Positions 17,529 through 59,983 of a DNA stretch of 64,000 nucleotides are shown piece after piece. Where the stretch lies: positions 42,148 through 106,147 of the forward strand of contig JBKJJJ010000174.1 in the NCBI GenBank assembly GCA_046598045.1, written 5' to 3'. The notes beneath the pieces are model-generated. The model saw nothing but the letters and a program-made list of their open reading frames with translations. It was not told the DNA's origin and did no database searches. The DNA is from Candidatus Eiseniibacteriota bacterium. Its GTDB lineage: Bacteria; Eisenbacteria; RBG-16-71-46; DASYSL01. The first letter of the stretch is position 1, and each line of letters begins with the position of its first letter. Position numbers and translations under genes: made by a program.

Positions 17529-17657
17529 GAGGGTCTCCGCGGTGGAAGCCGGCTTGGTCCTTCGGCGAGCGGCGAGTATATACTGCGCGTCCAGCGCTGG
17601 ATCGGAGGAACGCCACGGTCTTCGCTCGCGTTCCTCGTGCCGGTCACGGGCCCGCAC

Positions 17658-18197: not shown

Positions 18198-18386
18198 ACC
18201 GTGCAGGGAATCAGCGAATTCTTCCATGCCATGGGCCGCGAGGCCGCTTCGCTCTGGGACCTGATCACCGTCTGGCTGATCTCGGTGTTCGATCCGCAGT
18301 CGGGGATGATGCCCAAGCTGATCTTCGGCGGGGCGCTGCTGGCGGTCGTCTTCTATATCTCGCGGCGGGGCACGAAGTCCTAGTTT

Positions 18387-23686: not shown

Positions 23687-23796
23687 CCGTCCTCCGCTCG
23701 GTTCGAGGTGCGTCCACCATAGAACCCGCCCCGCCCCGCGCCAAGGGCCTTGACGCCACACCTCGCGCTTGAAACAGTCGCGCCGGGAGGGCCTCC

Positions 23797-24585: not shown

Positions 24586-24591
24586 GGTTCC

Positions 24592-28764: not shown

Positions 28765-28804
28765 GGGGCCCTCCGCGCCGGGCTGGCGGGTAGAGCGCTC
28801 GGGA

Positions 28805-31682: not shown

Positions 31683-32653
31683 CAGAGGACTCCCAGGTTC
31701 TCGAGCAGGCGCTCGAGATCGGTCTCGTTGTAGTACTCGATCTCGATCTGTCCGCGATCCGTGCTCCCCACGGGCACGATACGGACCTGGGTCGCGAGTT
31801 TCCGACGGAGTTCGTTTGTCCACTCCGCGTAAGTGCTAGAAACCGCATCCACAGCGGCTTGTGACGCGCCGTCGCCGCCGCGGCTCCTGCGCGAGGAGAT
31901 CTTGCGACGCATCTTGCGCGCGACCAGCGCCTCGGTTTTGCGAACGCTGAGACCCATGTCCGACACGTAGCGCGCGCTGGCTTCGATCTCGGCGCCGGAA
32001 GGCAAGCCGAGAAGTGCGCGGCCATGGCCCGCGGTCAATGTTCCACGTGAAACCATCGACTGTACCGACGCGGGAAGCGTGAGCAAGCGCAGCGCATTCG
32101 TGATCGAAGTGCGGTTCTTTCCCACGCGCTCACTCAGGCGCTCGTGCGTGTACTTCAACTCCTCGATCATGCGCTGATAACCGAGGGCCTCTTCGATCGC
32201 GTTGAGATCCTCGCGCTGGAGGTTCTCGATGAGCGCGATTTCAAGGATCTCGTCGTCGCTCACCTGGCGCACGATCGCCGGAATGGTCCCCAGTCCGATG
32301 CGTTGCGACGCGCGGAAGCGGCGCTCCCCCGCGATCAGTTGAAAATGGTCGCCGGCAGGACGAACCAGCACCGGTTGGAGCACGCCCTGGGCGCGAATCG
32401 ACTCCCCCAACTCGGCTAGCGCATCCTCGGTGAACTCGATTCGAGGCTGCTTCGGGTTGGGAACGATACGATCCAGCGGGATTTCCTGCACTCGCTCGCG
32501 AGTGTCCTCGGAGGCGGCGTAGCCCTGGGAAGGTCCCCCGGTTTCGGGTAGGTCGGTCGCCACGGCTCCGCTGGGAGCCTCCGTTTCGTCGCCCGGACCC
32601 GGCGCGCCAGGAATCAGCGCGCCCAGGCCACGGCCGAGAGCCTTTCTAGTCAT
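31682..32653 (-). CDS. parB: Chromosome partitioning protein ParB (Spo0J)
   Basis: Start MTRKALGRGLGALI (GRGL box), ParB/Srx motif VRPAGDHFQLIAGERRFRA, and HTH region. Overlaps the parA stop by 8 nt. Confidence 0.9.
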   Translation of the reverse strand: MTRKALGRGLGALIPGAPGPGDETEAPSGAVATDLPETGGPSQGYAASEDTRERVQEIPLDRIVPNPKQPRIEFTEDALAELGESIRAQGVLQPVLVRPAGDHFQLIAGERRFRASQRIGLGTIPAIVRQVSDDEILEIALIENLQREDLNAIEEALGYQRMIEELKYTHERLSERVGKNRTSITNALRLLTLPASVQSMVSRGTLTAGHGRALLGLPSGAEIEASARYVSDMGLSVRKTEALVARKMRRKISSRRSRGGDGASQAAVDAVSSTYAEWTNELRRKLATQVRIVPVGSTDRGQIEIEYYNETDLERLLENLGVL

Positions 32654-33407
32654 GGTGAATGACCTCCTGCGCCAGAGCGCGGTAACTCTCTGCCCCTGAG
32701 GATGTTCCATCGTAATGGATGATCGGTTTTCCGAAGCTGGGAGCCTCGCTGAGGCGCACGTTTCGCGGGATGACCGTGGTATAGACCCGGTCCGAGAAGA
32801 ACTTTCGAGCCTCGTCCGCGACCTGCTGCGAAAGATTGAGCCGCGAGTCGAACATCGTCAGCAGCACCCCCTCGATGCGGAGCCCCGGGTTCAAATTCTC
32901 CTGCACGAGCTGGATCGTGCGCACGAGCTGGGTCAGGCCCTCGAGCGCATAGTACTCGCACTGCAGGGGAATCAGGACCGAGTCGGCGGCGGTCAAGGTG
33001 TTGACCGTCAACAGGCCGAGCGAGGGCGGGCAATCGACGAAGATGTAGTCGTAGACATCGCGAATCGGCTGTAGCGCATGGCGAAAGCGGGTCTCGCGGG
33101 CCATCACGCCGACCAGTTCGACTTCGGCGCCGCTGAGTTTCTGTCCCGAAGGCAGGACATCCAGGTTGGGCAGGACCTCGCGCTGGATCGCCTCTTCGAT
33201 CGGTAGGCTGTTGACGAGGACTTCGTAGAGCGTGGGGCGGGACTCGTCGACACTGACGCCCAGGCCGCTGGCCGCGTTGCCCTGGGGATCGATGTCGACC
33301 AGCAGGATCCGCTTGCCATCTTCAGCGGCACAAGCGCTTAGGTTGATTGCGGTTGTCGTCTTTCCAACGCCACCTTTTTGGCTGGCGACGGCGATCACTT
33401 TACCCAT
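32646..33407 (-). CDS. parA: Chromosome partitioning ATPase ParA (Soj)
   Basis: Deviant Walker A KGGVGKTTTAINLSA. Full-length ParA/Soj homology. Confidence 0.9.
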   Translation of the reverse strand: MGKVIAVASQKGGVGKTTTAINLSACAAEDGKRILLVDIDPQGNAASGLGVSVDESRPTLYEVLVNSLPIEEAIQREVLPNLDVLPSGQKLSGAEVELVGVMARETRFRHALQPIRDVYDYIFVDCPPSLGLLTVNTLTAADSVLIPLQCEYYALEGLTQLVRTIQLVQENLNPGLRIEGVLLTMFDSRLNLSQQVADEARKFFSDRVYTTVIPRNVRLSEAPSFGKPIIHYDGTSSGAESYRALAQEVIHHD

Positions 33408-33562
33408 CGACCTTGAACGTCCTTGCGGGGGCCAGGGTTGTGTTTCAACGGGCGTACGAGCGCGCTCAAGGTACTCGGGCGTTCGGGCTCGGTCAATGTG
33501 CTTCTGAAAACGTGCTGGATTGCAGCCATTTACGCGGCACTACGAGAATGTTCCGCAGGGCT

Positions 33563-33578
33563 GTTCCACGTGAAACAT
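33563..33578. promoter_or_regulatory. parS: parS centromere-like site (perfect match to the Bacillus-type consensus)
   Basis: TGTTCCACGTGAAACA, the canonical 16-bp parS palindrome, about 160 bp upstream of parA. Confidence 0.8.
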
Positions 33579-33627
33579 CCCGACCCACGGCGCCACGGCT
33601 CTTCGCCAGGAGATCAAAGAGGCTCGA

Positions 33628-33643
33628 TGTTCCACGTGGAACA
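33628..33643. promoter_or_regulatory. parS: Second parS site (one-mismatch, perfectly palindromic variant)
   Basis: TGTTCCACGTGGAACA, 65 bp from the first site. The small track ORFs translating MFHVEHRA here are artefacts of the palindromes. Confidence 0.7.
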
Positions 33644-33685
33644 TCGGGCCCCGAATCTCTCCTCGGACGGGTGTTCTTGAGCGGT

Positions 33686-34414
33686 CTACGCCTCCAGGCG
33701 CTGAAACACCACGTAGTGAAGATGGCGGTCCGGGACGGGCACGGTTTCCAGGTGCGTCCAGCTCTTGTCTCCGCTCTTGGACCAATCCAGCAGCTCCACG
33801 GGGTGCGAGCTCCCCTTGAACAACACGGCGTAGCCTCCGGGGCGAATGATCGGCGTCAGCCAGGGCAAAAGTTCGCCGATCAGGGCGACGGCACGGGCTG
33901 TCGCTGCGTCGAAGGGCCCGGCGCCATCGGCCGCGAGGCGCTCGGCGCGGCCGACGATGACCGTGGTGTTGGGGAGATCGAGGCCCTCGACAATGCGCTT
34001 GAGGAACAATCCCTTTCGGCGGCGCGATTCCACCACGGTCACCGCGAGCTCGGGGCGGGCGATTTGGATCGGGAGCGCGGGAAAGCCGGCGCCGCTGCCG
34101 ACGTCCACGACGCTCTTCGGAGCAAGGCGGTCGAGCAGGGGAAGCACGGCCAGGGACTCCGCGACATGTCGACTGGCAAGGCGCCCCAGATCGTTCTGCG
34201 CCACCAGATTGCTGTCCTGAGTCCAGTGGAGCAAGTCTTCGAGATAGGCTTCGAGACAGGCCAGCATGGGGCCTGCAGCCTCCGGGGTCAGGGCATACTC
34301 GGACGCCAGTTTTCGAAGAACGGAGCGCTCTCCGGACGAGAGCTGCCGGACGCTCTCCGCACTGGCGGCGCGTCCGGAGTCATCATTGCGAGGCTTGGCG
34401 GGAGAGGATCTCAT
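33686..34414 (-). CDS. rsmG: 16S rRNA (guanine527-N7)-methyltransferase RsmG (GidB)
   Basis: SAM-binding VVDVGSGAGFPALPIQI. Full-length GidB homology. Confidence 0.9.
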   Translation of the reverse strand: MRSSPAKPRNDDSGRAASAESVRQLSSGERSVLRKLASEYALTPEAAGPMLACLEAYLEDLLHWTQDSNLVAQNDLGRLASRHVAESLAVLPLLDRLAPKSVVDVGSGAGFPALPIQIARPELAVTVVESRRRKGLFLKRIVEGLDLPNTTVIVGRAERLAADGAGPFDAATARAVALIGELLPWLTPIIRPGGYAVLFKGSSHPVELLDWSKSGDKSWTHLETVPVPDRHLHYVVFQRLEA

Positions 34415-34461
34415 GTCCGCAGATTAACCCGGCGACGGCCCGCCGTGCTTCCTAAAGATAC

Positions 34462-36402
34462 CTACGAAGGCGAAGCGCTCAGCGATGCCAACCCGGCCTT
34501 GAGTTGGACCAGGAGGACCGCCACGTCCGCGGGAGAGACGCCCGGGATCCGGCCCGCCTGCCCCACTGTGAGCGGGCGCACCTCGAGCAGCTTCTCGCGG
34601 GCCTCACGCGAGAGACCGCGCAATTCCCTGTCCCAGAGAGCACTGGGAATGGGTGTCGATTCCATGCCGGCGAGCCGGGCTACGAGGCGCTCCTGGCGCT
34701 CCAGGTAGCCGGCATAACGGGTCCGGACCTCGAGCATCTCGCCCTCGAGCGGACCGAGTTCTGCGAGGCCGTGTTCGCGCAGAAGTTCGTAGGAGCCTCC
34801 CGCGTGGGTCAGCAGGTCTCCGAGCGCATGCATGCCCGCTGGGAGGTCGGTGCCCGAGCCGATCCGGGTGGCGAGCGCCGCGCGGTGATCCGTCGGGATG
34901 CGCGTCGCGGCCAGGCGACGAGCCTCGACCCCAATTCGATCAACCTTGGCAATCACTTGCTGTAGTTTGGTTTGTGAGATCAGACCAAAGCGTGCTCCAT
35001 AAGCCGAGAGCCGTTCGTCGGCGTTGTCGTAACGCAGCAGAAGCCGGTACTCGGCCTGCGAGGTGAAGAGCCGATACGGCTCCTCGGTGCCCCGCGTCAC
35101 GAGGTCATCGACCATGACCGCGAGGTACGCCTCGTCGCGCCGCGGAAGGAACGCCGGCTCGCCGCGCACGGCGAGCGCGGCATTGATACCCGCCACGAGG
35201 CCCTGGGCGGCGGCCTCCTCGTAGCCCGAGGTGCCGTTGATCTGGCCGGCGAGATGGAGCCCCTCGACGGTGCGCACCTCGAGGCCGGAGCTGAGCTGGG
35301 TCGGGATCACGAAGTCGTACTCGACGGCATAGCCGGGTCGGAGCATGACCGCATCTTCGAGGCCGGGCACGGTCGCGATTGCGGCCCGCTGCGCCTCCTC
35401 GGGCAGGCTGGTCGAGAAGCCGTTGACGTAGATCTCCTCGGCGGCCAGGCCCTCGGGCTCGAGGTGGAGCAGGTGCTGCGGCTTGTCCGCGAAGCGTACG
35501 ACCTTGTCCTCGACCGAGGGACAGTAGCGCGGGCCGATGCCCTTGATCTGCCCGCTGTACATCGGCGACAGGTGCAGGTTGTCGCGGATGAAACGGTGCG
35601 TCGCCTCGGTGGTGTGCGTGAGGTGGCAGACCGCGCGGTTCGCGACCGGCGTATCGCCCCAGTGCGAAAACGGCAGCGGCGGATCATCGCCGCGCTGCAC
35701 GGTGAGCGAGTCCCAAGCGATCGAGTCACGATGGAGCCGCGGCGGCGTCCCGGTCTTGAGCCGGCCGAGGCGAAGCCCCGCGCGCAACAATGCGGGCGAC
35801 AGCCCGGCGCTTGCGCGTTCCCCGCGACGACCACCGGTGACCTGGCGCGTGCCGCAATGCATCACGCCGTTCATGAATGTGCCCGGGGTGACCACCACGC
35901 GCGGCGCCGCAAGCGTGCGCCCGTCCTCGAGCACGACGCCGCGCATCACGCCGCGGCGTTCGAGCACGCCGGTGGACGAGAAGCGCGGCTCGTCGAACAC
36001 GAGATCCTCGACCATCGCTTCGATCAGCGCGAGGCGCGACTCGGCGCGCAGCTCGGCGGCCATCGCGGCCGGGTAGAGGTCGCGATCCGCCTGCGCGCGC
36101 GGCGACCACACCGCGGGACCGCGTCCCTTGTTGAGCATGCGGAACTGGATGCCCGCGCGATCGATCACGCGGCCCATCACGCCGCCGAGGGCATCGATCT
36201 CGCGCACGAGGTGTCCCTTCGCGAGTCCGCCGACAGCCGGGTTGCATGACAGGCGCGCGGTGGCGTCGACCGACGCGGTGACCAGCGCGGCGGACAGGCC
36301 CATGCGCGCGGCGGCAAGTGCCGCCTCACAACCGGCGTGGCCGCCGCCCACCACGATCACGTCGTAACTCGCGCGTTCGAAGATCACGGACGCCACGCTC
36401 AC
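34462..36402 (-). CDS. mnmG: tRNA uridine 5-carboxymethylaminomethyl modification enzyme MnmG (GidA)
   Basis: GTG start at 36402 overlapping the mnmE stop (GTGA). FAD-binding [23 protein letters not shown]. The upstream 369 codons of track ORF 34462..37509 are a spurious run-on through mnmE on another frame. Confidence 0.9.
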
Positions 36403-37775
36403 TTTCCGATGCAGAAGCGCGCGAAGATGCGCGCCAGGAGGTCGGGTGCAACGGCCTCGCCGGTGACTTCGCCGAGTGCCGCGAGCGCGACGCGGATCTC
36501 GCCCGCGACGATCTCCCCGGGCGCCGCGGCGGCTGCATCGCGCGCCTCGTCGATCGCCAGCTGCGCACGCCGCAACGCGTCGATGTGGCGCGCGTTGGTG
36601 ACGAGCGCGGAGGCGGGATCTTCGCTGCTGCCCGAGACCAGCGCGGCGGCAAGCGCACGCCGCAGCGTCGCGACGCCCTCCCCGCTGTGGGCGGACACCT
36701 CGATGCAAGCGGCGGTGGCGAGCGCGGTCGGCGCGGCGAGCGCGCGCGGCAGGTCGCTCTTGTTGAACGCGATCACGCAGGGTCGATCGGAGGCGAGCGC
36801 CCAGGCCTCCGCGTCCGCGGCGGTCCACGGCGCGGACGCGTCGAGCACGAGCAGCGCCAGGTCCGCGGCGCGGAGCTCCTCGCGCGTGCGCGCGATGCCG
36901 AGGCGCTCGACCACCTGGTCGCCCTCCGCCTCGCGCAGGCCCGCCGTGTCGATCAGGCGCACCGGGATGCCTCCGAGGTCGAGACGTTCGCTCACCGCGT
37001 CGCGCGTGGTGCCCGCGATCTCCGCGACCAGCGCGCGCGATTCTCCCAGGAGCGCGTTGAAGAGCGAAGACTTGCCGACGTTCGGCCGCCCGACGAGCGC
37101 GAGTCGCGCGCCTTCGCGGGCGCGGCGGCCGAGGTCGGCGCCGCGCAGCACGTCCTCGAGCGCATCCGAAGCGCGAGCGAGACCCTCGGCGACGTGGGGC
37201 GGCAACGTGGCCTCGCCCACGTCCTCGGCGAAGTCGACGCGCGCCTCGACCTCGGCAAGCAGGTCGCGCAACGGCTCGGCCACGTTCGACAATCCGCTCG
37301 AGAGTGCGCCCGCGACCTGGCGCGCGGCGAGGCGATGCGCGAGTTCGCTCTCGGCGTGGATCACGTCGGCGACCGCCTCGGCGCGCGCGAGGTCCATGCG
37401 GCCGTTGAGGAACGCGCGCTCGGTGAATTCGCCGGCCCGCGCCGCGCGCGCGCCCGCCGCGAGCAGCGCCGCGAGCAGGCGCGGCGCGGACCAGTCGCCG
37501 CCGTGGCACGTGAACTCGACCATGGTCTCGCCGGTGTAGGACGCGGGCGCGGGGAGGACCACCGCGAGCAACTCGTCGATCATCTCGCCGGACGCGTCGT
37601 GGGCGGAGCCGTGGCGCAGCGCACGCGGCGGGGCGTCGGCGAGCGGGCTCGCGCCCGGACCCCAGCCGCGGAACACGCGATCGCCGATCGCGCCCGCGTC
37701 GGCTCCGGAGAGCCGGACGATCGCGAGCGCGGAGCGCCCCGGGGGCGTGGAGATGGCGGCGATGGTGTCGGTCAT
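36399..37775 (-). CDS. mnmE: tRNA modification GTPase MnmE (TrmE)
   Basis: ATG at 37775 ([13 protein letters not shown]). G-domain [14 protein letters not shown] and DTAGLRE. C-terminal CIGK tetrapeptide (..FARFCIGK). Confidence 0.9.
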
Positions 37776-37819
37776 GGGAGCGCCGGGCGGCGCTCCCGCG
37801 ACGACCGGCTTGCCTCGGA

Positions 37820-38722
37820 TCAGCCCTTGATCGCCGGGCGGATGGCGATGCGTTTGAGCACGCCGTCGCCGTACGACTCGGTGGTCACGCTGCCGTCGGC
37901 CGTGAGCGCGCGATGGATGACGCGGCGCTCCTCGGGCGAGAGCGGCTCGGTCAGGGCCTCGTCGCCACTGGCGATCGCCTCGGCGGCGAGCGCACGCGCG
38001 CGACCGAGCAGCGATTCCTTGCGCTCGGCCCAGTAGCCGTTGACGTCGACCAGCAGGTGGGCCCCCGGTCCGCGGCGCGGGTTCACGAGGCGCGACAGCA
38101 CGTGCTGGATCGAGAGCCGGGTCTCGCCCCGGCGCCCGGTGAGCAGCGCGTCGTCGGTCTCGCTGGTGAGGCTGACGGTGACCTCGTCGTCCTCGTGCGC
38201 CACCGCAACCTTCGCCTCGAAGCCGAGGCGCTCGAGCAGCCACTCGGCGTCGGTGCGCACCTTCGCGAGGAAGGCGTCGTCGACGTCGAAGCGCTCGCCC
38301 GGCTCGAGCGGCGTGCGCGGGCGGCGCGGACGCTCGGGCCGATCACCCCGCGACGGGCGCTCGCGGCGCTCCCCGCGCTCGGGACGTCCGCCGCGCACGC
38401 CACGATCTCCACGGGCGCCGCGATCCTCGGCGGCGCTGCGGTCGATGCGATCCTGGCGCGCGGGACCGTGGTCGATCTCTTCGTCCTCGGAGTAGGCGTT
38501 GCGCTCCGCCTTCGGGGCCGGCGGCGGCGGTGGTGGTGGGGCGAACTCGGGGCGCCACGTCGCGCGCACGCGGAACAGGCGGGCCACGCCGCCCATGAGC
38601 CCGGCCGGACCACCTTCCTCGAGCTTCTTGAGGGTGGCCTGGTCGGGCCGGGCGCCCAGCGTGTTGAGGGCGTCCAGCACGGCTTCCTCGAGCGTGTTAC
38701 CCGAACCGACGGCGCTATTCAC
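37820..38722 (-). CDS. jag: Jag/KhpB-type RNA-binding protein (KH + R3H domains)
   Basis: Conserved position between yidC and mnmE. N-terminal Jag_N. Arg/Glu/Asp-rich linker. C-terminal R3H-like [36 protein letters not shown]. Confidence 0.8.
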
Positions 38723-38743
38723 GATCCCCTCCGAGCGTCATGC

Positions 38744-40456
38744 CTACGCGGCCTTGGCCTTGGGCTGCGCGTCGCCGCGGGCGATGAGCCACGACTGCAA
38801 CGCGGTCAGCAGGTTGATCACGGTCCAGTAGAGGACCAGTCCCGACGGCAGGTTGTAGAACAGGAACAGGAAGACCAGGTTCATCAACGTCATCGTGGTC
38901 TTCTGCTTCGGGTCGGTCGGCGACATGTGCATCTGGAGCACCATCGACCCGTACATCAACACCGGCATGAGGCGCAGCGGCACCGGCCCGATCTGGGCGA
39001 GCAGGTCCGGCGACGACAGGTCGGTGATCCAGCCCACGAAGCCCGCCTGGCGCAGCCCGATCGAATACCCGAGCACGTGGTAGAGCGCGAGGAAGAACGG
39101 CATCTGGATGACCATGGGCAGGCAACCCGAGAGCGGGTTGATCTTGTGCTCCTTGTAGAGGCCCATCATGGCCTCGTTCAGCTTCTGCGGATCCTTCTCG
39201 TGCTTCTTGCGGATGCGCTCGACTTCGGGCTGGATCTTCTGCATCGAGCGCATCGAGCGCATGCCCTGCGACTGCAGCGGGTGCGTCGCCGCCTTGGCCA
39301 GCGTCGAGAGCAGGATGATCGCGAGGCCCCAGTTGCCGACGACCTTGTGGAAGAACCCGAGCAGCCACGCCAGCGCGGACGAGAACGGCCGGAAGAAGTT
39401 GAACGCAAATGCGTGCGGCGGCTCGAGGTCCATGCCGATGCGCTGGATGTGCCAGTAGTCGAGCGGCCCGGCATAGAGCATGTACTGGTGGACGCGTCCC
39501 GCGGCGGGCAGCGGCAGCGTGATGTCGCCGATCACTGCGTCGTGGGCCTCGGGAAGCGTGCCCGGCGCGAGGTTGGCCGACGTGGCGACGCCATCCACGT
39601 TCTCGGCGACCAACCCGAGCAGGAAGTACTTGCTGTGGACCGCGAGCCAGGAGACGGCGCCCTCGCGCGATTTCACGCCCTTCTTGAGCCCCGTCGCCAT
39701 CTCGCGGCGGTTGTCCTTGCCGACCTTCGCGGTCACGCCGAGGTTGTTGAGGTCCTCGAGGTGATTGCGCTCGGTTGCCAGCGGCCACGAGCGCAGCGCG
39801 ATCCGGTAGTGCCTCAGGTCGAGCTTGGGGTCGAGCCCGGCGATCGAGACGGAGTAGCCGATGCGATAGTCGGCGGCGTTGAAGCGGAACGCCTGTTCGA
39901 TCGTGAGCCCGCTCGAATCCCGCGCGGTGAACGTGAGCTTCGCGACGTGGCCCGAGGTGTCGAGGCTCTCGGCCCACGCGTAAGGCACGTCGTCGAGGTC
40001 GATCGGAGTCTGCGCGTCGCCGAGGTCGAGCGCGAGCGCCGGATCCCCCGACAGCGTGGCGCGGCCCGAGTTGCCGTCCTTGTAATCCTTGAGCACGACC
40101 GAGAGCAGGCGCGCGCCGCGCGCGCGAAGGCGCGCCGTGTAGAGCGGCTGCTCGATGGTCAGGATGCTGTCGGCGCCGGCGGGTGCGAGCCACGTGCCGT
40201 TTGCTCCGCCCGCGCTGTCGGGCGCGGCCGGGACATGGCTGCCGAGGATCGCAGCGGCCGGACCCTTGACCGGCGCGGGCGCTTGCAACTGCGGCGTGCC
40301 GCCGGGGACCGTCGGTCCCGCGGGCGTCTGCACCTTGACCTGGGCCTGGCGCTGTTGCGCGGGCGTGGGAATCCACCCGAGCTTCTGGAACAGGAGGTTG
40401 GAGCCGAACAGGACGACGAACGAGAGCGCGATCGCGACCAGCGCGCGGCGATCCAT
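38744..40456 (-). CDS. yidC: Membrane protein insertase YidC
   Basis: N-terminal TM, large periplasmic domain, and the C-terminal five-TM 60-kDa-IMP core (..NPLSGCLPMVIQMPFFLALYHVL.. and NLPSGLVLYWTVINLLT). Confidence 0.9.
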   Translation of the reverse strand: MDRRALVAIALSFVVLFGSNLLFQKLGWIPTPAQQRQAQVKVQTPAGPTVPGGTPQLQAPAPVKGPAAAILGSHVPAAPDSAGGANGTWLAPAGADSILTIEQPLYTARLRARGARLLSVVLKDYKDGNSGRATLSGDPALALDLGDAQTPIDLDDVPYAWAESLDTSGHVAKLTFTARDSSGLTIEQAFRFNAADYRIGYSVSIAGLDPKLDLRHYRIALRSWPLATERNHLEDLNNLGVTAKVGKDNRREMATGLKKGVKSREGAVSWLAVHSKYFLLGLVAENVDGVATSANLAPGTLPEAHDAVIGDITLPLPAAGRVHQYMLYAGPLDYWHIQRIGMDLEPPHAFAFNFFRPFSSALAWLLGFFHKVVGNWGLAIILLSTLAKAATHPLQSQGMRSMRSMQKIQPEVERIRKKHEKDPQKLNEAMMGLYKEHKINPLSGCLPMVIQMPFFLALYHVLGYSIGLRQAGFVGWITDLSSPDLLAQIGPVPLRLMPVLMYGSMVLQMHMSPTDPKQKTTMTLMNLVFLFLFYNLPSGLVLYWTVINLLTALQSWLIARGDAQPKAKAA

Positions 40457-40459
40457 GCG

Positions 40460-46404: not shown

Positions 46405-46585
46405 ACGGTGCGAACAGTTTCGATCGGGTGCCCTGCAGCCAGGGGTGAAAAGGGAAGGGGGTGCGAATCCCCCACGATCCCGTCACTGTGATGGGCGAGC
46501 CGCGATTCCACGATGCCACTGGCCGCAAGGCCGGGAAGGCGGAACCGGCGCCGAGCCCTCAGTCAGGAGACCTGCCCGGTCCACG
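46405..46585 (+). promoter_or_regulatory. Cobalamin (adenosylcobalamin) riboswitch, Rfam RF00174-like
   Basis: Conserved elements in order: GGTGCC ... AGGGAA ... GGTGCGAATCC ... CACTGTGATGGG ... B12 box GCCACTGG ... GGGAAGGC ... AGTCAGGAGACCTGCC. It lies immediately upstream of a TonB-dependent receptor gene. Confidence 0.85.
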
Positions 46586-46713
46586 TTCCCGTGACTCTCC
46601 GCGAGAGAGAGGCTGGGCGATTTTCCCGTCCCGCCAAAGCGGGCGCCCGCCCGCCGCTCTCCCGTCGTGACGAGTCGCATGCCTGGACCAGCCACGAGGC
46701 GGGAGACCTCGTC

Positions 46714-48744
46714 GTGTCCTTCGTTCCCGCAATGGCATTGCTCGTGGCGCTCGCCTCCGGCGACAGCGTGCTCACGCTGCCGGGCGTCGAGGTGCGCGAC
46801 GCGCGCCCGCTCGACGACCCGGCGCTCCGCCGCGCCCCGGGGTTCGCGCGCTCGTACGACGTGACGCCGGCCTACGGCCGCCTCGGCACGGTGAGCGACC
46901 TGCTCGCGCGCGGCGTGGGCGTCCACGTGCGCCAGTTCGGCGGGCTCGGCGCGTTCAGCGCGGTGTCGATCCGCGGCTCCTCGAGCGCGCAGGTCGCGTA
47001 CTACCTCGACGGCGCTCCGCTCAACCAGGCGCAGTACGGCGTGGTCAATGCCGCCGACCTGCCGATCGAGGCGCTGTCGCGCATCGAGGTCTACCGCGGC
47101 GGCGCACCGCTCGCGTTCGATGCACCCGGGGGCGGCGTGGTCGAGCTGGTCACGCGCGACGACCCGGGCCGCTGGATGCGCGCCGACCTCGGCGGCGGCA
47201 GCTTCGGCACGCGCAAGCTGGACCTCGCATTGGGCGCGACCCGCGCGCGCACCACGCTCATGGCCGTCGTGCAGAGCCTCGCGAGCCACGGCGACTTCCG
47301 CTACCTCGACGACAACGCCACCGATGCCAACACGGACGACGACACGCTGCGCACGCGCGCGAACAACGCATTCGATTCTTACGCGGTCACCGCGCGCGTG
47401 GCGCAGGGCGTGGGCCCGGCACGGATCGCGCTGACACATGACCGCCTCGGCAAGCGCCAGGGCGTACCGGGCACGGGCGCGAACACCGCGCTCGCGGCGC
47501 GGCTGCGCACCGACCGCGCGGTGAGCGTGCTGCGCGCGGCCGCCGAGACCTGGCCGCTCACGCCCGTGCAGTCGTTCTTCTACGCGCAGCAACGCGACCG
47601 CTTCTCGGACCTCGCGCGGGAGTTGAGCGGGACGAAGCAGGACAACGACGATCACACCACGCGCTACGGGGCGCGCACCGAGGCTGCGCTTGCGCTGCCC
47701 GGCGCGCTCGGCGGCACGCATCGCCTCGCGCTGCTGGGCGAGGCGCGGCGCGAACGCTACACGCCGAAGATCAACCTGCCCGCGCCACGCGTGCTCGCCA
47801 CGTCGCAGCGCGAGGTCGCGATTTATGGCGCGGAAGATCGCTGGTCTCCGGGCCGCGGCCGGCTCGGGCTGACCGCGCAGGCCCGGCGCGAGCTGACGTT
47901 CGACGCGTTCCCCGCCGGACCGGCGTATCCGGGCGCGCTCCCGTCGCCGGCTGCTGACCGGACGATCCGCCTGACGCGCTGGACCGTGGCTGCGCACGTG
48001 GAGTTGGTGCGCGGCACGGCGGGGACGCTCGCGCTTCGCACCTCGCTCGCGCGGCTCGCGCGCACGCCCACGCTCGAGGAGCTGTTCGGCAACCGCGGGG
48101 GCGTGCACGGCAACCGCGACGCGCTGCCCGAGCGGGTGCTCACGCGCGACGCCGGGCTGACCGGCGCGTGGACGCTCGCGCAAGGCGGCGCGGCGCGGCC
48201 GCGCGCGCTCGAGGCCCAGCTGTCGGCGTACCGCTCGGACGCAGACGACTTGCTGGTGTTCATCCAGAACTCCGCGCGCACGTCGGTGGCGCAGAACGTG
48301 GCGGCGGCGCGGCTCGAGGGCATCGAGCTGGCGTCGCGCGCGGCGTGGGCGTGGGGCCTCTCCGCCGATCTTTCGTGGACGCGCCAGTGGACGCGCGACC
48401 AGGGGCAGGTCGCGTACTGGCGCGGCAAGGACCTGCCCGGCCGCCCGCGCGACGAGGCCAGCCTCGGGCTGTCGCTCGAGCGCGGCCCGGTGCGCGGCTT
48501 CGGCGAGCTGCACGCCACTTCCCCCTTCCATCTCGATCGCTACAACCAGGTCACGATCCCGGCACGCGCACTGGTCGACGTCGGCGCGTCGTACGCATTT
48601 GCCGGGCGCACCACCGATGTCGTCCTCGAATGCCGCAACGTGGGCGACGCGCACGTGCAGGACTTCGGCGGCTATCCCCTTCCCGGGCGCTCGTGGGCGC
48701 TGGGCATCCGTTTCCATCTCGATCGAAAGGCAGATCTCCCGTGA
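46714..48744 (+). CDS. btuB: TonB-dependent receptor, BtuB-like (vitamin B12/cobalamin outer-membrane transporter by riboswitch context)
   Basis: Signal peptide ..FVPAMALLVALASG. TonB box-like DSVLTLPGVEV. Plug-domain motifs (VSIRGSSSAQVAYYLDGAPL, IEVYRGGAPLAFDAPGGGVVELVTR). About 22-strand barrel length. The start is uncertain (GTG near 46714 or ATG 46732). Confidence 0.8.
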   Translation: MSFVPAMALLVALASGDSVLTLPGVEVRDARPLDDPALRRAPGFARSYDVTPAYGRLGTVSDLLARGVGVHVRQFGGLGAFSAVSIRGSSSAQVAYYLDGAPLNQAQYGVVNAADLPIEALSRIEVYRGGAPLAFDAPGGGVVELVTRDDPGRWMRADLGGGSFGTRKLDLALGATRARTTLMAVVQSLASHGDFRYLDDNATDANTDDDTLRTRANNAFDSYAVTARVAQGVGPARIALTHDRLGKRQGVPGTGANTALAARLRTDRAVSVLRAAAETWPLTPVQSFFYAQQRDRFSDLARELSGTKQDNDDHTTRYGARTEAALALPGALGGTHRLALLGEARRERYTPKINLPAPRVLATSQREVAIYGAEDRWSPGRGRLGLTAQARRELTFDAFPAGPAYPGALPSPAADRTIRLTRWTVAAHVELVRGTAGTLALRTSLARLARTPTLEELFGNRGGVHGNRDALPERVLTRDAGLTGAWTLAQGGAARPRALEAQLSAYRSDADDLLVFIQNSARTSVAQNVAAARLEGIELASRAAWAWGLSADLSWTRQWTRDQGQVAYWRGKDLPGRPRDEASLGLSLERGPVRGFGELHATSPFHLDRYNQVTIPARALVDVGASYAFAGRTTDVVLECRNVGDAHVQDFGGYPLPGRSWALGIRFHLDRKADLP

Positions 48745-50180
48745 ATCTCCGCCCGTCCCTCCTGGTCCTCCTGTTCCTCGGCGCGCTCGCGCCCGGCGCG
48801 AGCGCCGCCGAAACCCGCGCCTACGTGTACTGCACCGACTTCGGCTCCGGTGCGATCTCGACCGTCGAGTTCGGCCCGCCGCGCACCGCGATCAACAACC
48901 GGGCGAGCGTGGGCTCCGACGCGGTCGTGCGCTGGTTCGGCGGGCAGCTCTACGTGGTCGAGCGCTTCGGCCTCGACAACATCCGCATCCTCGACCCGGC
49001 GACGTTCGCCGTGGTGCGGCAGTTCTCGGTCGGCAACGGCTCGAACCCGAACGACATCTACGTGGTCTCGCCGACCAGGGCCTACGTCACGCGTTATGAC
49101 AAGCCGGACCTGTGGATCGTGAACCCCTCGACCGGCGCGTTCGTGAGCAGCATCTCGCTGGCACCATTTGCCGATCCCGACGGCCTGCCCGAGATGAACC
49201 GGCTCACCTACCACGCGGGGCGCCTGTTCGTGTCGTGCCAGCGGCTCAATCGCGACAACTTCTTTTCGCCCACGGACTCGAGCCTCGTGGTCGTGATCGA
49301 CACGGAGACCAACCAGTTCGTGGACGCGGACCCGACCCTACCCGGCGCACAGGGCATCCTCCTGCCGCGCACGAACCCGACGACCGAGTTCGCCACCACG
49401 CCCGAGGGCGACTTCCTGCTCGGCTGCACCGGGGCTTACAGCGTGAACGATGGCGGCGTGGCGCGGATCGACCCGCGCGCGCTCACGTCGACCACGGTCG
49501 AGGTGACCGAGGGAGAGCTCGGCGGCGACGTCAACGACGTGGCGATCGGCCCGGGGGCGAGCGGCGTCGCGCGCGCGTTCTGCGTCGTGAGCGATCCGGC
49601 GTTCAACACCAACCTCGTGTCCTACCAACGCTCGGGCGCGCCGTCGGTGGCGACGGTGTTCCCCGGTGTCGGCTTCGTGCTCGGGGACGTCGAGGTCAAC
49701 GACCGGGACGAGGTGTGGCTGTGCGATCGCACCGGGACCGGACCCGGCGTGCGCGTGTTCGACGCGGTCACGAACGCGCAGCTCACCGCGAGCGCGATCT
49801 TCACCGGGTTGCCGCCCTCGGACATCTCGTTCGACGTGGTCGAGCCCGTCGGCGTTCCGGGCCCGCCGCCCGCAGCCGCGGTCAGCGTGGCGTTCGCGGG
49901 CATCGCCCCGAACCCGGCGGTCGGGGGCGCCCCGACGACGATACGCCTGCGCGCAGAGGTGGCCGGCGCGCTGCGCGTCTCGATCGTGGACGCCGCAGGC
50001 CGCCTGCTCCGGACCTGGCGGCTCGAAACCGCCGCCGGGGAGCGGGTCCTGGCCTGGGACGGCCGGGACGAGGCGGGCCGGGCGGCCCCGGCGGGCGTGT
50101 ACCTCGTCCGCGCCGCGCTCGACGATCAGCCGGGCGTCGCGAGCGCGCGACTGGTCCGACTGGCCCCGGCGCGGCTATAA
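48741..50180 (+). CDS. Secreted beta-propeller-like protein with T9SS type-A / FlgD-Ig-like C-terminal sorting domain, co-transcribed with btuB (candidate surface cobalamin-binding accessory protein)
   Basis: GTG at 48741 overlapping the btuB TGA (GTGA). Signal peptide VNLRPSLLVLLFLGALAPGASAA. Repeated Y-V-V / Y-V-T blades. C-terminus IAPNPAVGGAPTTIRLRAEVAGALRVSIVDAAGRLLRTWRLE...WDGRDEAGRAAPAGVYLVRA. Confidence 0.65.
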   Translation: MNLRPSLLVLLFLGALAPGASAAETRAYVYCTDFGSGAISTVEFGPPRTAINNRASVGSDAVVRWFGGQLYVVERFGLDNIRILDPATFAVVRQFSVGNGSNPNDIYVVSPTRAYVTRYDKPDLWIVNPSTGAFVSSISLAPFADPDGLPEMNRLTYHAGRLFVSCQRLNRDNFFSPTDSSLVVVIDTETNQFVDADPTLPGAQGILLPRTNPTTEFATTPEGDFLLGCTGAYSVNDGGVARIDPRALTSTTVEVTEGELGGDVNDVAIGPGASGVARAFCVVSDPAFNTNLVSYQRSGAPSVATVFPGVGFVLGDVEVNDRDEVWLCDRTGTGPGVRVFDAVTNAQLTASAIFTGLPPSDISFDVVEPVGVPGPPPAAAVSVAFAGIAPNPAVGGAPTTIRLRAEVAGALRVSIVDAAGRLLRTWRLETAAGERVLAWDGRDEAGRAAPAGVYLVRAALDDQPGVASARLVRLAPARL

Positions 50181-50187
50181 TCGAAGG

Positions 50188-50225
50188 CCCGGGGGCGGCG
50201 GCTTGCCCCGCCGCCCCGTTCGCTT
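50188..50225 (+). terminator. Rho-independent-like terminator after the btuB operon
   Basis: Perfect 10-bp GC stem GGGGCGGCGG-CTTG-CCGCCGCCCC followed by GTTCGCTTG. Confidence 0.5.
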
Positions 50226-50264: not shown

Positions 50265-51350
50265 ATGTTCACCGTGCCCCATCGTCCCCTGCGCGCCCTC
50301 GCTGCCGCCCTTTTCGTGACCGCCGTCCTGGTCACCGCGTTGCCCGGTCGCGCCGAGTCGCCCTGCGCCGGTTCGTTCTGCTGGATCCAGCGCGGCAACT
50401 ACGCGGGGCTCGAGTTCACCGCCCTGCTCTCGCCCCCCGGCAACCCGTGCGTCGTGGCGTGGACCGCGCTCTCGAACGGCGGGCTCGGCGTGTCGACCGA
50501 TTGCGGCGCGCAGTACGCGAACCTGTTCCAACTCAGCGCCTACGACGTGACCGCGCGCGACTCGAACGTGGGTTACGTCGCCGCCGGCGCGCTCGGCATC
50601 GCGAAGACCAAGGACACGGGATCGAACTGGTTCGCGATCAACAGCGGCCTGCCCGCGTTCCCCGACGCGCGCGCGATCCTCCTGCACGTGGCGAAGCCGG
50701 ACTCGGCGTTCTGCGGCCTGCACGGCGGCGGCGTGTTCATCGGCGGCCCCAAGGCCGGCGGCGGCACGGACTCGCTCATGCAGTGGACCGCGATCAACGA
50801 GGGTCTCTTAGACCTCAACGTGCGCGCGCTGGCGCGCGTGCGCGGCGGCACGTTCCTGGTCGCCGCGACCGACGGCGGCATCTGGCGCCGCGGCAACAAC
50901 GTGTGGTTGCTGGTCGGCCCCGCGGTGGTGGCGAACGCGCTGGTGATCGACTCGGCGGATTCGAGCCGCGTCTACGCCGCGACCGAGAACGGCGTCTACC
51001 GCAGCCTCAACCAGGGCCTGTCGTGGTTCCCGTCGTCGGCCGGCCTTCCCTTGAACACGCCGGTGAACGACATCGCGCGCCGCACCGACAACTCCGCGGT
51101 GCTCTACATCGGGACGCGCGGGCAGGGCGTGTGGCAGAGCACGAATTACGGCGCGAACTGGACGCCGTTCGGCCCGCCGCTGCCGGGCGACAACGACGTG
51201 CGCGCCGTGCTGTGCGCGGTGGGCGCGGCCGCGCCCGACTCTGCGAACGTGTTCGCCGGGACGCGCGCGAACGGGCTCTTCCAGAACGGCTACTCGACGC
51301 CCGCGCGGCCGGTGACCTGGGGCCAGATCAAGGACCGGTATCGGCGGTAA
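50265..51350 (+). CDS. Secreted BNR/Asp-box repeat protein (Ycf48/sortilin-like beta-propeller)
   Basis: Signal peptide. Asp-box repeats S-x-D-x-G-x-x-W (TKDTGSNWF, SLNQGLSWF, STNYGANWT). Confidence 0.65.
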   Translation: MFTVPHRPLRALAAALFVTAVLVTALPGRAESPCAGSFCWIQRGNYAGLEFTALLSPPGNPCVVAWTALSNGGLGVSTDCGAQYANLFQLSAYDVTARDSNVGYVAAGALGIAKTKDTGSNWFAINSGLPAFPDARAILLHVAKPDSAFCGLHGGGVFIGGPKAGGGTDSLMQWTAINEGLLDLNVRALARVRGGTFLVAATDGGIWRRGNNVWLLVGPAVVANALVIDSADSSRVYAATENGVYRSLNQGLSWFPSSAGLPLNTPVNDIARRTDNSAVLYIGTRGQGVWQSTNYGANWTPFGPPLPGDNDVRAVLCAVGAAAPDSANVFAGTRANGLFQNGYSTPARPVTWGQIKDRYRR

Positions 51351-58085: not shown

Positions 58086-59801
58086 TCAGCGCAGAACGAC
58101 GAACTTGGCTCCGTCGGACATCTCCCCGCTCTGATCGCGCACCCGCGCGAAGTACACACCCGGACGGATCCCACCCCCCTGGAGTGGAATCTTCAGCGTC
58201 TGTGCGTCACGATCGGCTCGTTGGACCCTTGCCTGCTGAACTACGCGGCCCGCGAGATCATAGATCGTGACCGTGAGTTCGGATCCGATCGCATCGCTCA
58301 AATCAAGCGTGAGCGCGTCGGTCGTGAAGCCCCGCGGACGAGCCTCGAAGTGCCGCTTGCGGCCGCCTCCCGGGGAAAATCGCGCAATCGGGCTGAGCCA
58401 CTCGAACCGCGAGTCGACGCTCTCGCGGCGAATGCGGTACGAAATGTCGTCCCTCTGAGACCACCCCGAACGATTATCGAGGTCCGTCCAACTCATCGCG
58501 AGACTTGCTCCCGCCTGGAGCCGGGCGACCGCTGCGAATTCGCCAGCCCCGGTTCGCCGCAACACCGACCACCACGTCCCGGGAGCCAAGGTCGAGAGCG
58601 TCCAGGTCAATCGGGGATGTCCCTGGGAGACGTCCACCGCGGGAACGCTCGTGGTCGCGGAGGTATGGGTGTGCGTATAGCGGAAAGGCTGAAAGGATTC
58701 GGACCACGCGACCCAGGCGTCGCCGTTGCGGTCACGTCCGATCGACGGAACGGCGCCATATCCACTGCTGTAGAACTGATCGCCCGGATCCCAGCCATGA
58801 TCATTGGGGAAGTTGACGACGACACCGGCGGAGCCGTCGAGATAGTTGGTGTACGCCCACGTCACGAGCGGTCGGTAGGCGGCGTCCCGGCTCAGGTCGG
58901 TCGAGAGGGCCTCGGCCCCGCGCGGCGTCGTGATCGCAGGACAGAACAGCGTCTCCGGGGCCGACCACACGTGGCCGTCGAACCGCCGGAGAAAGACGCT
59001 CTGTTCCCCGCTGCTCCACGTCATCCAGGCGCCGCCACCGGCACTAAATCGAAGTCGGGGACCGCCCGCGAACCCGGATGTGAGGATTTCGGGAGAGCGC
59101 TCCCACCGGCTTCCGCGAAGAACTCCCCAGTCAAGCGGCTCTCCGTTTCCAGCCCATGCCATGAGCGCGGTCGTGTCGTCGAGCGCGACCAGGTTGAGGC
59201 CGTAGTTGCCGATCGCTCCCGTCGAGACTTCATTCCATCGGTCGCGCTCATCGGAATAGAACAGGCGGAGAACACCACGGTCCTCGATCGCCACCCATCG
59301 TCTAGGATCTCGAAACGCGCCACCGTACGAGGTTCGAAATTGGCCGACTTGAGCCACGATCTCGGGCGGGGTCGGGTGATCGTCGATCACCTCGGAAACG
59401 AAAAACGTGTGGTCCGTCGCGTAGGATCCGCCAGTGTACACGAGGGGATAGCGTCCGACGGGCGCGTCGACAGCATACAGTCCGAGCGGGTTCGCCCCAA
59501 GGGTCCACCACGGCTCCCACAAGCTCCCAAGCCACTTGTACGCAAGTCCGTCGTCCTGCTGCGAGTCCTGATACAGAACCCCCGTTCCGATCAGCAGAGG
59601 ACTTCCGGTGGCGGTCATCTCGACCCGCGGGACCACGAGTTCATTGAACCCGGAAACCTGTAGCACCTCGACGTCTCCCCACTCCCTGCCGGCAGGAGCC
59701 GCCACCGCTAGCATAGGAACCAACCAAGCAACGAGTCCGAGGCCTCTGACAAGAAGGCCGACGGCATCGCATTTCGACTTCCGCCCCATCATGACCTCCA
59801 C
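58086..59801 (-). CDS. Secreted protein with T9SS type-A / FlgD-Ig-like C-terminal sorting domain
   Basis: Signal peptide LVAWLVPMLAVAAPA. The large N-terminal domain has Trp-rich beta-propeller-like repeats. C-terminus LTLDLSDAIGSELTVTIYDLAGRVVQQARVQRADRDAQTLKIPLQGGGIRPGVYFARV. Confidence 0.6.
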   Translation of the reverse strand: MEVMMGRKSKCDAVGLLVRGLGLVAWLVPMLAVAAPAGREWGDVEVLQVSGFNELVVPRVEMTATGSPLLIGTGVLYQDSQQDDGLAYKWLGSLWEPWWTLGANPLGLYAVDAPVGRYPLVYTGGSYATDHTFFVSEVIDDHPTPPEIVAQVGQFRTSYGGAFRDPRRWVAIEDRGVLRLFYSDERDRWNEVSTGAIGNYGLNLVALDDTTALMAWAGNGEPLDWGVLRGSRWERSPEILTSGFAGGPRLRFSAGGGAWMTWSSGEQSVFLRRFDGHVWSAPETLFCPAITTPRGAEALSTDLSRDAAYRPLVTWAYTNYLDGSAGVVVNFPNDHGWDPGDQFYSSGYGAVPSIGRDRNGDAWVAWSESFQPFRYTHTHTSATTSVPAVDVSQGHPRLTWTLSTLAPGTWWSVLRRTGAGEFAAVARLQAGASLAMSWTDLDNRSGWSQRDDISYRIRRESVDSRFEWLSPIARFSPGGGRKRHFEARPRGFTTDALTLDLSDAIGSELTVTIYDLAGRVVQQARVQRADRDAQTLKIPLQGGGIRPGVYFARVRDQSGEMSDGAKFVVLR

Positions 59802-59831
59802 ATTCTTGGCATCGCCATCAATTCTAGCTTG

Positions 59832-59842
59832 CCCCCCCCCCC
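59832..59842. repeat. Homopolymeric C11/G11 tract in a divergent promoter region
   Basis: GCTTG-CCCCCCCCCCC-TAATCG lies between the - strand gene start at 59801 and the + strand ATG at 59984. Confidence 0.7.
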
Positions 59843-59983
59843 CTAATCGAGCGCAGAATGTTTGCCGAACTCCGTCGGCCGGTTAGCCACCCCCCGGCTC
59901 AGCCTTCCATAGCCGCAAGTGCCCTTCCGACTGCGCCCTGCAAATCGCCCTGGGAAACGCCCCTCCCGCCTTGGAGGTTCGAC

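Follow-up and report, generated by a model that had tools for sequence, protein, structure and literature searches.

We find that the window, the 64,000-nucleotide stretch of DNA analysed here, carries a cobalamin riboswitch followed by the genes for a TonB-dependent receptor and a BtuG homologue, and that this homologue ends in a domain which, judged from its family, is of the type A sorting kind used by type IX secretion systems (T9SS). We consider it probable (roughly 0.6) that these are the parts of a corrinoid-repressed two-gene outer-membrane uptake unit, in which a T9SS-exported, surface-tethered BtuG homologue feeds the receptor. For the propeller protein we infer corrinoid binding, T9SS export, surface tethering and a lid complex with the receptor.

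Table 1. Features of the uptake unit, in positions of the window.
Feature	Position	Strand	Remarks
Cobalamin riboswitch aptamer (RF00174)	46409..46593	+	Full length including peripheral extension; 119.7 bits
Leader / expression platform	46594..46713	+	MFE -65.8 kcal/mol, z -2.53
TonB-dependent receptor, BtuB role	46714..48744	+	Plug and barrel domains
Signal peptide (residues 1-23)	48741..48809	+	Signal-peptidase-I type GASA|AE, no lipobox Cys
Seven-bladed beta-propeller, BtuG homologue (residues 24-366)	48810..49838	+	
Pro/Ala-rich flexible linker (residues 367-382)	49839..49886	+	pLDDT < 50 at 369-378
C-terminal Ig-like beta-sandwich (residues 383-479), FlgD_ig / T9SS type-A CTD kind	49887..50177	+	
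GC-rich stem-loop after stop codon	50185..50225	+	Core stem 50192-50217

Riboswitch, receptor and locus order

The sole Rfam match of the whole window is the RF00174 aptamer, which cmsearch aligned over model positions 1-189 of 189 at 119.7 bits (E 1.8e-29; gathering score 31.5 bits). An earlier note on this DNA had read a cobalamin riboswitch upstream of a btuB-like gene from the letters alone and had proposed this very search as a check; the result is strongly positive. The aptamer lies 121 nt upstream of the receptor start, on the same strand. In the leader between them two hairpins are predicted: one is long and GC-rich, and the other surrounds GGGAG (46701-46705), the putative ribosome-binding site directly 5' of GTG 46714, and would sequester that site. 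The receptor start itself is uncertain: it may be GTG 46714, which has GGGAG 8 nt before it, or ATG 46732. The ATG at 46513 of the mechanical open reading frame call falls within the aptamer.

The receptor matches Plug (PF07715, 7.5e-15) and TonB_dep_Rec_b-barrel (PF00593, 6.5e-25), as expected of the BtuB architecture of an N-terminal plug and a 22-strand barrel, and contains a possible TonB box, DSVLTLPGVEV. Of the solved structures, it is most similar to BtuB of E. coli (5e-14, in the plug region) and of B. thetaiotaomicron (2.6e-5). The btuB gene of E. coli likewise encodes a TonB-dependent receptor behind a cobalamin riboswitch leader, but it lacks the accessory surface binder of the window unit, and the window receptor scores far under the thresholds of the BtuB equivalog models (TIGR01779, 90.5 bits with a cut-off of 599.7; NF007926, 71 bits with one of 836). 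We assign the receptor its B12 role on account of its riboswitch and BtuG partner rather than its own sequence.

Receptor and propeller genes share four nucleotides, GTGA, at the junction ...CCGTGAAT..., where the receptor stop TGA occupies 48742-48744 and the propeller GTG begins at 48741, just as had been claimed for the btuB stop and the GTG of a 479-aa gene. Of 46 related loci, which come from Eisenbacteria, Krumholzibacteriota and Latescibacterota, all 46 have the arrangement riboswitch, receptor, propeller. Each has a homologous aptamer in the same relative position, and the receptor and propeller genes overlap by up to 17 nt or lie up to 31 nt apart. Co-conservation with btuB, which the earlier note had named as a test, is thus seen throughout this set. 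More widely, the related family comprises 2010 clusters at 50% identity (E <= 1e-3), and species-representative genomes contain at least 477 stretches that match it; its hosts include the same three phyla and also MAGs labelled Deltaproteobacteria, and a cobalamin riboswitch was present in every family locus examined. The window host, Candidatus Eisenbacteria, is a soil or sediment lineage.

Downstream of the propeller gene, a 10-bp all-GC stem (50192-50217), extended to 50185-50225, has a dG of -28.4 kcal/mol. The GC stem-loop that had been described as a Rho-independent hairpin is therefore present, but it has no U tract and was not called by a terminator scan, and its z-score is only -1.77, with 12 of 200 shuffles folding equally well or better. 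It is no canonical Rho-independent terminator, and its role may be to end transcription or to stabilise the RNA.

The propeller protein and its relation to BtuG

The second gene (48741-50180) encodes 479 aa, for which an AF2 model (mean pLDDT 89.6) consists of a propeller (24-366), a low-confidence Pro-rich linker (369-378) and a beta-sandwich (383-474). The signal peptide ends in a pattern, AxA|(A/Q)(E/Q)TRAF, that is conserved across 56 relatives, and neither these relatives nor the window protein have a conserved lipobox in their signal peptides. Solved BtuG structures superimpose on the propeller more closely than those of other propellers do, so the structural comparison that had been called for comes out in favour of BtuG. 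At the profile level, an hmmsearch of the PDB with the family profile matched nine BtuG entries (2e-7 to 6e-7), and hhalign of the propeller family against BtuG gave a probability of 96.5% in local and 97.6% in global mode over 294 columns, the latter spanning the entire propeller. The Pfam family of BtuG, PF16819, is touched by 10 of the 56 relatives (best E 1.6e-6); the window protein alone has no match to it even at E <= 1. By fold and sequence profile, then, the window protein is a BtuG homologue, and a likeness that had been suggested from context becomes one of homology.

The two also differ. BtuG (BtuG1/2/3 of Bacteroides thetaiotaomicron; PF16819, DUF5074; PDB 3DSM, 8BAI, 8BMX, 8BN0 and 8P97) shares 15-20% identity with the window propeller, which lacks both the lipoprotein Cys32 and the N-terminal hinge linker of BtuG2 and adds instead a C-terminal linker and a T9SS-type C-terminal domain (CTD). 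BtuG has been described as a lipoprotein exclusive to Bacteroidetes (PMC6143338), unlike the window family in Eisenbacteria, Krumholzibacteriota and Latescibacterota. The scores of XusB, BtuK and further propeller lipoproteins of Bacteroides, which also cap TonB-dependent transporters, are lower than that of BtuG, and no sequence profile links these proteins to the window family; XusB binds siderophores and is not controlled by a B12 riboswitch.

In an alignment that is of low confidence outside blades 2-5, some corrin contacts of BtuG2 look conserved or conservatively replaced in the window family and others do not. Gln219 of BtuG2, a corrin-amide contact and mutagenesis target (preprint 10.1101/2024.02.16.580637), aligns with window Gln204 (Gln in 55 of 56 relatives), and the DMB-stacking Phe58 with Phe34 (aromatic in all 56). 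Ser131 falls on Asn102 (55 of 56 relatives) and Asn107 on Glu/Asn74. About half of the polar and aromatic corrin contacts of BtuG2 are not conserved: Trp149 is replaced by Asp, Ser195 by Leu, Gln93 by Ser and Trp272 by Glu, and Tyr335 aligns with a Gly-rich loop. A propeller that is B12-regulated and binds no corrinoid, being co-expressed by chance as a lactonase- or YncE-like enzyme, an adhesin or a binder of another metabolite (as XusB binds its siderophore ligand), strikes us as highly improbable.

The C-terminal domain and the alternative lipid anchor

The CTD forms an Ig-like beta-sandwich at the far C-terminal end of a protein that carries a Sec signal, with strands from 383 to 474 at pLDDT ~90 and the motifs PNP, D-x-x-G-R and G-V-Y. 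It scores 41.8 bits against FlgD_ig (PF13860; cut-off 27) and 20.2 bits against the T9SS type-A model TIGR04183, under the cut-off of 23; the window protein has no match to PF18962. Within the family, TIGR04183 is matched by 35 of 56 relatives at E <= 0.01 (best 1.2e-13) and PF18962 by 19 of 56, the family profile matches the CTDs of PorZ (9e-5) and PorU (1e-4), and one relative carries the NCBI title of a T9SS type A sorting domain protein. The FlgD-Ig/T9SS tail that had been proposed is thus borne out for FlgD_ig and for the family, while the window copy stays just under the curated T9SS cut-off; on these profile matches the family, taken as a whole, has a CTD of the T9SS type-A sorting kind. 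Type-A cargo such as RgpB, PorZ and PorU of Porphyromonas gingivalis similarly places a C-terminal Ig-like beta-sandwich after a Sec signal and a functional domain, and shares with the window CTD the conserved Gly of the D-x-x-G-R loop and the G-x-Y motif. The window protein differs in that its CTD scores better against FlgD_ig than against TIGR04183, and in that the cargo is no protease, glycosidase or adhesin but the presumed partner that captures ligand for a TonB-dependent transporter.

Two mutually exclusive forms make up the family, one with an N-terminal lipobox and one with a C-terminal T9SS domain. A signal peptide is combined with a CTD in about 45 of the 150 best cluster representatives, and a lipobox occurs without a CTD in about 32-60 of them, depending on the lipobox pattern. 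Close relatives of the latter form sit at riboswitch-controlled loci (35-54% identity), one of them at a syntenic locus: this protein, P0441, which has a lipobox but lacks a CTD, shares 54% identity with P0110, which has a signal peptide and CTD, and the P0441 locus has the same synteny of permease, UDG, riboswitch, receptor, propeller and M48 peptidase. As close relatives have a lipobox and no CTD, the surface-anchoring devices have therefore been swapped. The earlier note had seen the novelty in a T9SS-sorted analogue of BtuG; since propeller lipoproteins also occur outside Bacteroidota, what is new is this anchor swap and not merely a BtuG in a new phylum.

A different account of the CTD, as a structural FlgD-like Ig domain with no secretion signal on a protein that is periplasmic or otherwise exposed and acts as a corrinoid binder or receptor chaperone, could draw on the FlgD_ig match being the best, on the T9SS scores of the window copy, on a unit that lacks btuF, and on the ~36 window open reading frames scanned, among which no T9SS machinery genes (SprA/Sov, PorV, PorU, GldKLMN) were seen. 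We also found no report of T9SS in Eisenbacteria in the literature searched. We regard this account as distinctly improbable, given the T9SS type-A matches and name among the relatives, the PorZ and PorU matches, and the position of the domain, which is the very C-terminal end of every full-length relative. The same domain also recurs on unrelated secreted proteins of the window, at the ends of open reading frames 13641-15137 (+), 15210-16322 (+) and 58089-59882 (-), the last of which in addition matches Por_Secre_tail below threshold (21.5 bits; cut-off 27). Moreover, orthologues have a lipoprotein anchor in place of the CTD, which argues for a targeting role and not one related to the ligand.

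Proposed uptake mechanism and its significance

In the T9SS-exported, tethered form that we favour, plentiful cobalamin would fold the riboswitch and turn expression off, probably via occlusion of the ribosome-binding site; under cobalamin shortage, the receptor would be made in its BtuB role, with the propeller translationally coupled to it. The propeller would cross the inner membrane via the Sec pathway, its ordinary signal peptide being removed, and the type-A sorting domain would direct it through the T9SS across the outer membrane. We expect that the sorting domain would then be removed and that the C-terminal linker would hold the propeller at the cell surface, with CTD cleavage and attachment near the C-terminal end of that linker if it is processed like Porphyromonas gingivalis cargo. 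This tether would take the position of the N-terminal lipid of Bacteroides BtuG, and the propeller face would capture corrinoids with high affinity and hand them to the receptor beneath.

The fate of the protein after export could also be another one, in which the propeller binds B12 but is released, as a diffusible 'corrinophore' that docks transiently on the receptor in the manner of a haemophore. In sequence, an anchored and a released T9SS cargo would look alike here, and many T9SS cargoes are freed once the CTD is cleaved (PMC11285876); furthermore, the linker that joins Cys32 to the propeller of BtuG2 is a proposed hinge on BtuB (PMC10404256), and the mature window protein starts directly at blade 1, with no linker of this kind before it. 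Against release, orthologues at the same locus are lipid-anchored, which suggests that the cell-bound state is the selected one, the Pro-rich C-terminal linker would serve as a tether, and a free high-affinity binder would be a public good, costly in open environments. We judge release unlikely and favour the tethered lid.

More speculatively, and as a tentative extension, a lipid anchor and a T9SS domain could be interchangeable for a transporter lid, with the swap among orthologues probably repeated in uncultured lineages of the FCB group, the T9SS form of the BtuG homologue perhaps released as a scavenger, and BtuB-BtuG capture ancient and widespread in soil and sediment. In a 2026 review (PMC13616437), B12 capture with the help of lipoproteins still figures as a trait of the gut Bacteroidota. 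If the extension is true, nutrient capture would become a function of T9SS, and BtuB-BtuG capture would not be a speciality of gut Bacteroidota. The anchor swap gives a direct argument for the CTD as a surface-display device in phyla where T9SS is unstudied, and a testable model of a transporter lid tethered from the opposite end of the chain. The family also supplies many divergent predicted B12 binders for corrinoid ecology and for B12-sponge tools, which have been built from BtuG2 (PMC13374852).

Organization of the receptor and propeller genes

In the whole window, Rfam has a single match, the RF00174 cobalamin riboswitch (119.7 bits, gathering score 31.5, E = 1.8e-29), which spans the entire model (positions 1-189) and lies upstream of a TonB-dependent receptor gene, as the earlier note had proposed. 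The receptor contains a Plug domain (7.5e-15) and a barrel (6.5e-25), and among solved structures it comes closest to BtuB of E. coli (5e-14, in the plug region) and of B. thetaiotaomicron (2.6e-5). As its score against the NCBIfam BtuB equivalog (90.5 bits) falls far below the cut-off of 599.7, we assign it a BtuB role because of its genomic context. The start called mechanically, ATG 46513, falls within the aptamer and was discarded for this reason; likelier starts are GTG 46714, which follows a GGGAG, or ATG 46732. Two hairpins are predicted in the leader, a long one and another that encloses this GGGAG, a fold that would fit control by masking of the ribosome-binding site. The 479-aa propeller ORF begins at a GTG (48741) that overlaps the receptor's TGA (48742-48744), so that both the receptor and the overlap described earlier are confirmed. 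The riboswitch and receptor of this unit are ordinary.

The claim that a Rho-independent hairpin closes the unit holds in part: a stem-loop is present after the propeller stop, and it is not a canonical terminator. Its fold is not significantly better than that of shuffled sequence, 12 of 200 shuffles folding at least as well. As a consensus terminator scan also made no call at 50185-50225, we claim no terminator here. The 361-aa gene directly 3' of the hairpin was considered as a third member and excluded, because outside the nearest clade (7 of 90 loci: L005, L006, L011 and L013-L016) it is not conserved 3' of the BtuG homologue. Read-through co-transcription into it is possible and is not a family trait.

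Features of the window
Feature	Position	Strand	Description
TPR/CHAT protein	5117-8368	-	1083 aa; TPR repeats and CHAT domain (CHAT 1.3e-51)
ORF ending in the C-terminal domain	13641-15137	+	
ORF ending in the C-terminal domain	15210-16322	+	
Second large beta-propeller	16455-18386	-	643 aa; YncE, lactonase and cytochrome-d1 family matches, mostly weak
Fatty-acid uptake/beta-oxidation cluster with adjoining TonB gene	20544-28094 and 28099-29088	-	FadL/TodX-type porin, acyl-CoA synthetase, FadB-like enoyl-CoA hydratase/3-hydroxyacyl-CoA dehydrogenase; adjoins a TonB gene (C-terminal domain 2.6e-20)
parA-like, mnmG/gidA, yidC	32646-40459	-	in a row
Cobalamin riboswitch	46409-46593	+	RF00174
TonB-dependent receptor gene	46714 or 46732 to 48744	+	first gene of the unit
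Propeller gene	48741-50180	+	second gene of the unit
Stem-loop	50192-50217 (extended 50185-50225)		10-bp all-GC stem, no U tract
361-aa gene	50265-51350	+	secreted product; weak F510_1955-family glycosylhydrolase match (6.7e-12, below cut-off)
ORF ending in the C-terminal domain	58089-59882	-	

Among the other features of the window, the second large propeller is unrelated to that of the unit: its Cytochrom_D1, YNCE and Lactonase matches reach the Pfam cut-offs, and it has no match to the propeller HMM of the BtuG homologue. The TonB beside the fatty-acid cluster could energise the receptor. A set of parA-like, mnmG/gidA and yidC genes is usual near bacterial replication origins, and oriC may therefore not be far from the window. 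The combination of TPR repeats with a CHAT domain is a caspase-like protease architecture frequent in signalling or defence contexts.

Conservation of the unit and homology to BtuG

A homologue search yielded 133 relatives of the propeller protein, mainly from Candidatus Eisenbacteria and Krumholzibacteria MAGs. When each GTDB species was represented by a single genome, at least 477 stretches matched, of which the best 80 come from Eisenbacteria, Krumholzibacteriota and Latescibacterota together with a few contigs bearing unlikely labels. The Eisenbacteria-type unit on contigs labelled Acidiferrales, Methylomirabilota, Saccharimonadales and Limnocylindria (loci L019, L024, L058 and L090) is probably the result of mis-binning. 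Wherever the DNA 5' of the propeller gene is long enough, its immediate neighbour there is a TonB-dependent receptor gene, and the co-conservation named in the earlier note is thereby borne out. Gene calls put the two genes anywhere between 17 nt of overlap and 31 nt apart, and at three of seven loci they overlap by 4 nt. A same-strand RF00174 match (55-119 bits) precedes the receptor at six of six and then 40 of 40 tested loci (46/46).

In an AlphaFold2 model built with 56 homologues (mean pLDDT 89.6), residues 24-366, which follow an N-terminal signal peptide, form a propeller of about 28 strands and residues 383-474 a beta-sandwich, and between the two lies a Pro-rich linker (369-378) that is disordered. 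BtuG tops the structural ranking for the propeller, and it is the sole family reached by sequence profiles, the family profile matching nine BtuG chains in the PDB (2e-7 to 6e-7). For direct comparison with BtuG2, the surface B12-binding lipoprotein of B. thetaiotaomicron, its 366-aa sequence was taken from human-gut metagenome contigs; a 97-aa piece of BtuG2, used as query, had matched gene fragments only, and the full-length search listed only relatives of at least 76% identity. Against this shallow BtuG2-type alignment, hhalign gave a probability of 96.5% in local mode and 97.6% in global mode (E = 1.7e-11, 294 columns), pairing residues 47-366 of BtuG2 with 24-365 of the window protein. 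The Pfam BtuG model PF16819 is touched by ten of the 56 relatives and has no match in the window copy. These profile comparisons indicate that the link to BtuG is one of homology, beyond fold alone, and so the description of the protein as BtuG-like by context stands in a stronger form, resting on homology and on the exchange of anchors described below rather than on contextual analogy. Among roughly 60 btuG2 copies in the human-gut contigs (loci L091-L170, e.g. L091 1114-1809), two are truncated or frameshifted, at 231 and 349 aa compared with 366 aa.

Residues of BtuG2 that contact the corrinoid were taken from published work (10.1101/2024.02.16.580637, a preprint; PMC10404256). Gln219 corresponds to window Gln204 (Gln in 55/56 relatives), Phe58 to Phe34 (aromatic in all 56), Ser131 to Asn102 (Asn in 55/56) and Asn107 to Glu/Asn74 (28 Glu and 28 Asn), while Trp149, Ser195, Gln93, Trp272 and Tyr335 are not conserved in the family. 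Since some contacts are kept or conservatively replaced and others are lost, we consider corrinoid binding by the window propeller likely. That half of the contact residues differ could mean that the propeller does not bind corrinoids at all, a reading made very improbable by the riboswitch linkage at all 46 tested loci, by the first place of BtuG in the structural ranking and by its being the only family that the profiles reach.

The C-terminal domain and the exchange of anchors

In Bacteroides, the lipoprotein BtuG carries its lipid at Cys32 and has an N-terminal linker that passes along the barrel of BtuB (PMC10404256, PMC6143338). In the window protein and the 55 relatives aligned with it, by contrast, the signal peptide is of the AxA type and blade 1 stands at the very start of the mature chain; no conserved lipobox is found in this 56-sequence alignment. 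Where BtuG2 ends, the window protein continues with a linker and an Ig-like domain (CTD, residues 383-479). This domain matches FlgD_ig at 41.8 bits and the T9SS type-A model TIGR04183 at 20.2 bits, just below the cut-off of 23. In the family, TIGR04183 is matched by 35/56 members (best 1.2e-13) and PF18962 by 19/56, one member is named a T9SS type A sorting domain protein by NCBI, and the CTD lies at the extreme C-terminus of every full-length relative. The T9SS-type tail claimed for this protein is thus upheld for the family, the window copy staying below the threshold. The same kind of domain terminates three further ORFs in the window (E = 7e-21, 4e-14 and 2e-7), one of which gives a match to Pfam Por_Secre_tail that, at 21.5 bits, stays under the cut-off of 27; none of the three can be assigned to a family with confidence from its N-terminal part. 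No T9SS machinery genes were found among about 36 window ORFs scanned.

A propeller-only HMMER search of 1.84 billion cluster representatives recovered 2010 relatives at E ≤ 1e-3 (260 at E ≤ 1e-30), and anchor type was classified for the best 150. About 45 of these have a signal peptide and CTD, and between about 32 and 60, depending on the strictness of the lipobox definition, are lipobox forms of about 365-390 aa that stop where the propeller stops (e.g. IAGC/S, ATGC/EED and FVAC/GDDDDD, with a slash after the lipidated Cys); others have N-terminal extensions or tandem propellers. Among these other architectures, P0298 (739 aa) has two propellers in tandem, P0338 and P0364 bear Cys-rich extensions at the N-terminus, and P0342, a lipobox form of 702 aa, has a long Cys-rich, EGF-like extension at the C-terminus; P0351 and P0358 also belong here.

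The lipobox forms, too, are linked to B12. A cluster including MAGs labelled Deltaproteobacteria (L171) combines riboswitch, receptor and lipoprotein propeller, and a metagenome contig (L173) carries, in order, permease, UDG, riboswitch, receptor, lipoprotein propeller and M48 peptidase genes, a synteny identical to that of the CTD-type loci L010 and L009. Lipobox protein P0441 and CTD protein P0110, from syntenic loci, share 54% identity across the whole propeller. On a second metagenome contig (L172, 3721-5098), a riboswitch (98.7 bits) lies directly 5' of the lipobox propeller P0398, with no receptor between and thiC next; P0398 is, by its predicted features, a stand-alone B12-regulated BtuG-like lipoprotein. 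When rooted on BtuG2, a crude neighbour-joining tree points to a CTD-less ancestor, with the lipobox forms nested within the main CTD clade; parsimony on this tree gave 18 changes, a number inflated by unclassified C-terminal extensions, and the tree serves here solely to show that nesting.

As judged from these sequences, lipobox and CTD exclude each other and replace one another between orthologues; we have no stronger argument for regarding the CTD as a surface-delivery device that serves the same function. The sub-threshold score of the window copy would suit a CTD that is not a secretion signal and a protein that stays in the periplasm, which the family-level matches and the swap of anchors render quite improbable.

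Proposed delivery of a B12-capturing lid

BtuG has been reported as exclusive to Bacteroidetes (PMC6143338), and in a 2026 review it still appears solely as a lipoprotein of gut Bacteroidota (PMC13616437). Our literature search found nothing relevant on T9SS in Eisenbacteria and no link of BtuG, or of any B12 binder, to T9SS. The propeller described here is homologous to BtuG and would work likewise, but it has no lipoprotein anchor, one of the defining features in descriptions of BtuG, and the window copy misses the Pfam model.

We favor, at a probability of roughly 60%, an operon repressed by corrinoid that encodes the receptor and a BtuG homologue, the latter exported by Sec and then by T9SS. 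The homologue would be held by its C-terminal linker and would serve as the receptor's B12-capturing lid. Many T9SS cargoes are set free, and the propeller might likewise be released as a diffusible scavenger; given that its orthologues carry a lipid anchor, we regard this as unlikely. Among the lipobox relatives, P0300, P0308, P0336, P0338, P0348, P0357 and P0398 have an acidic run after the lipidated Cys (C/EED, C/GDDDDDD, C/SDDDDD, C/AEEE), which resembles the signal by which Bacteroidota export lipoproteins to the cell surface; such a signal would be notable outside Bacteroidota.
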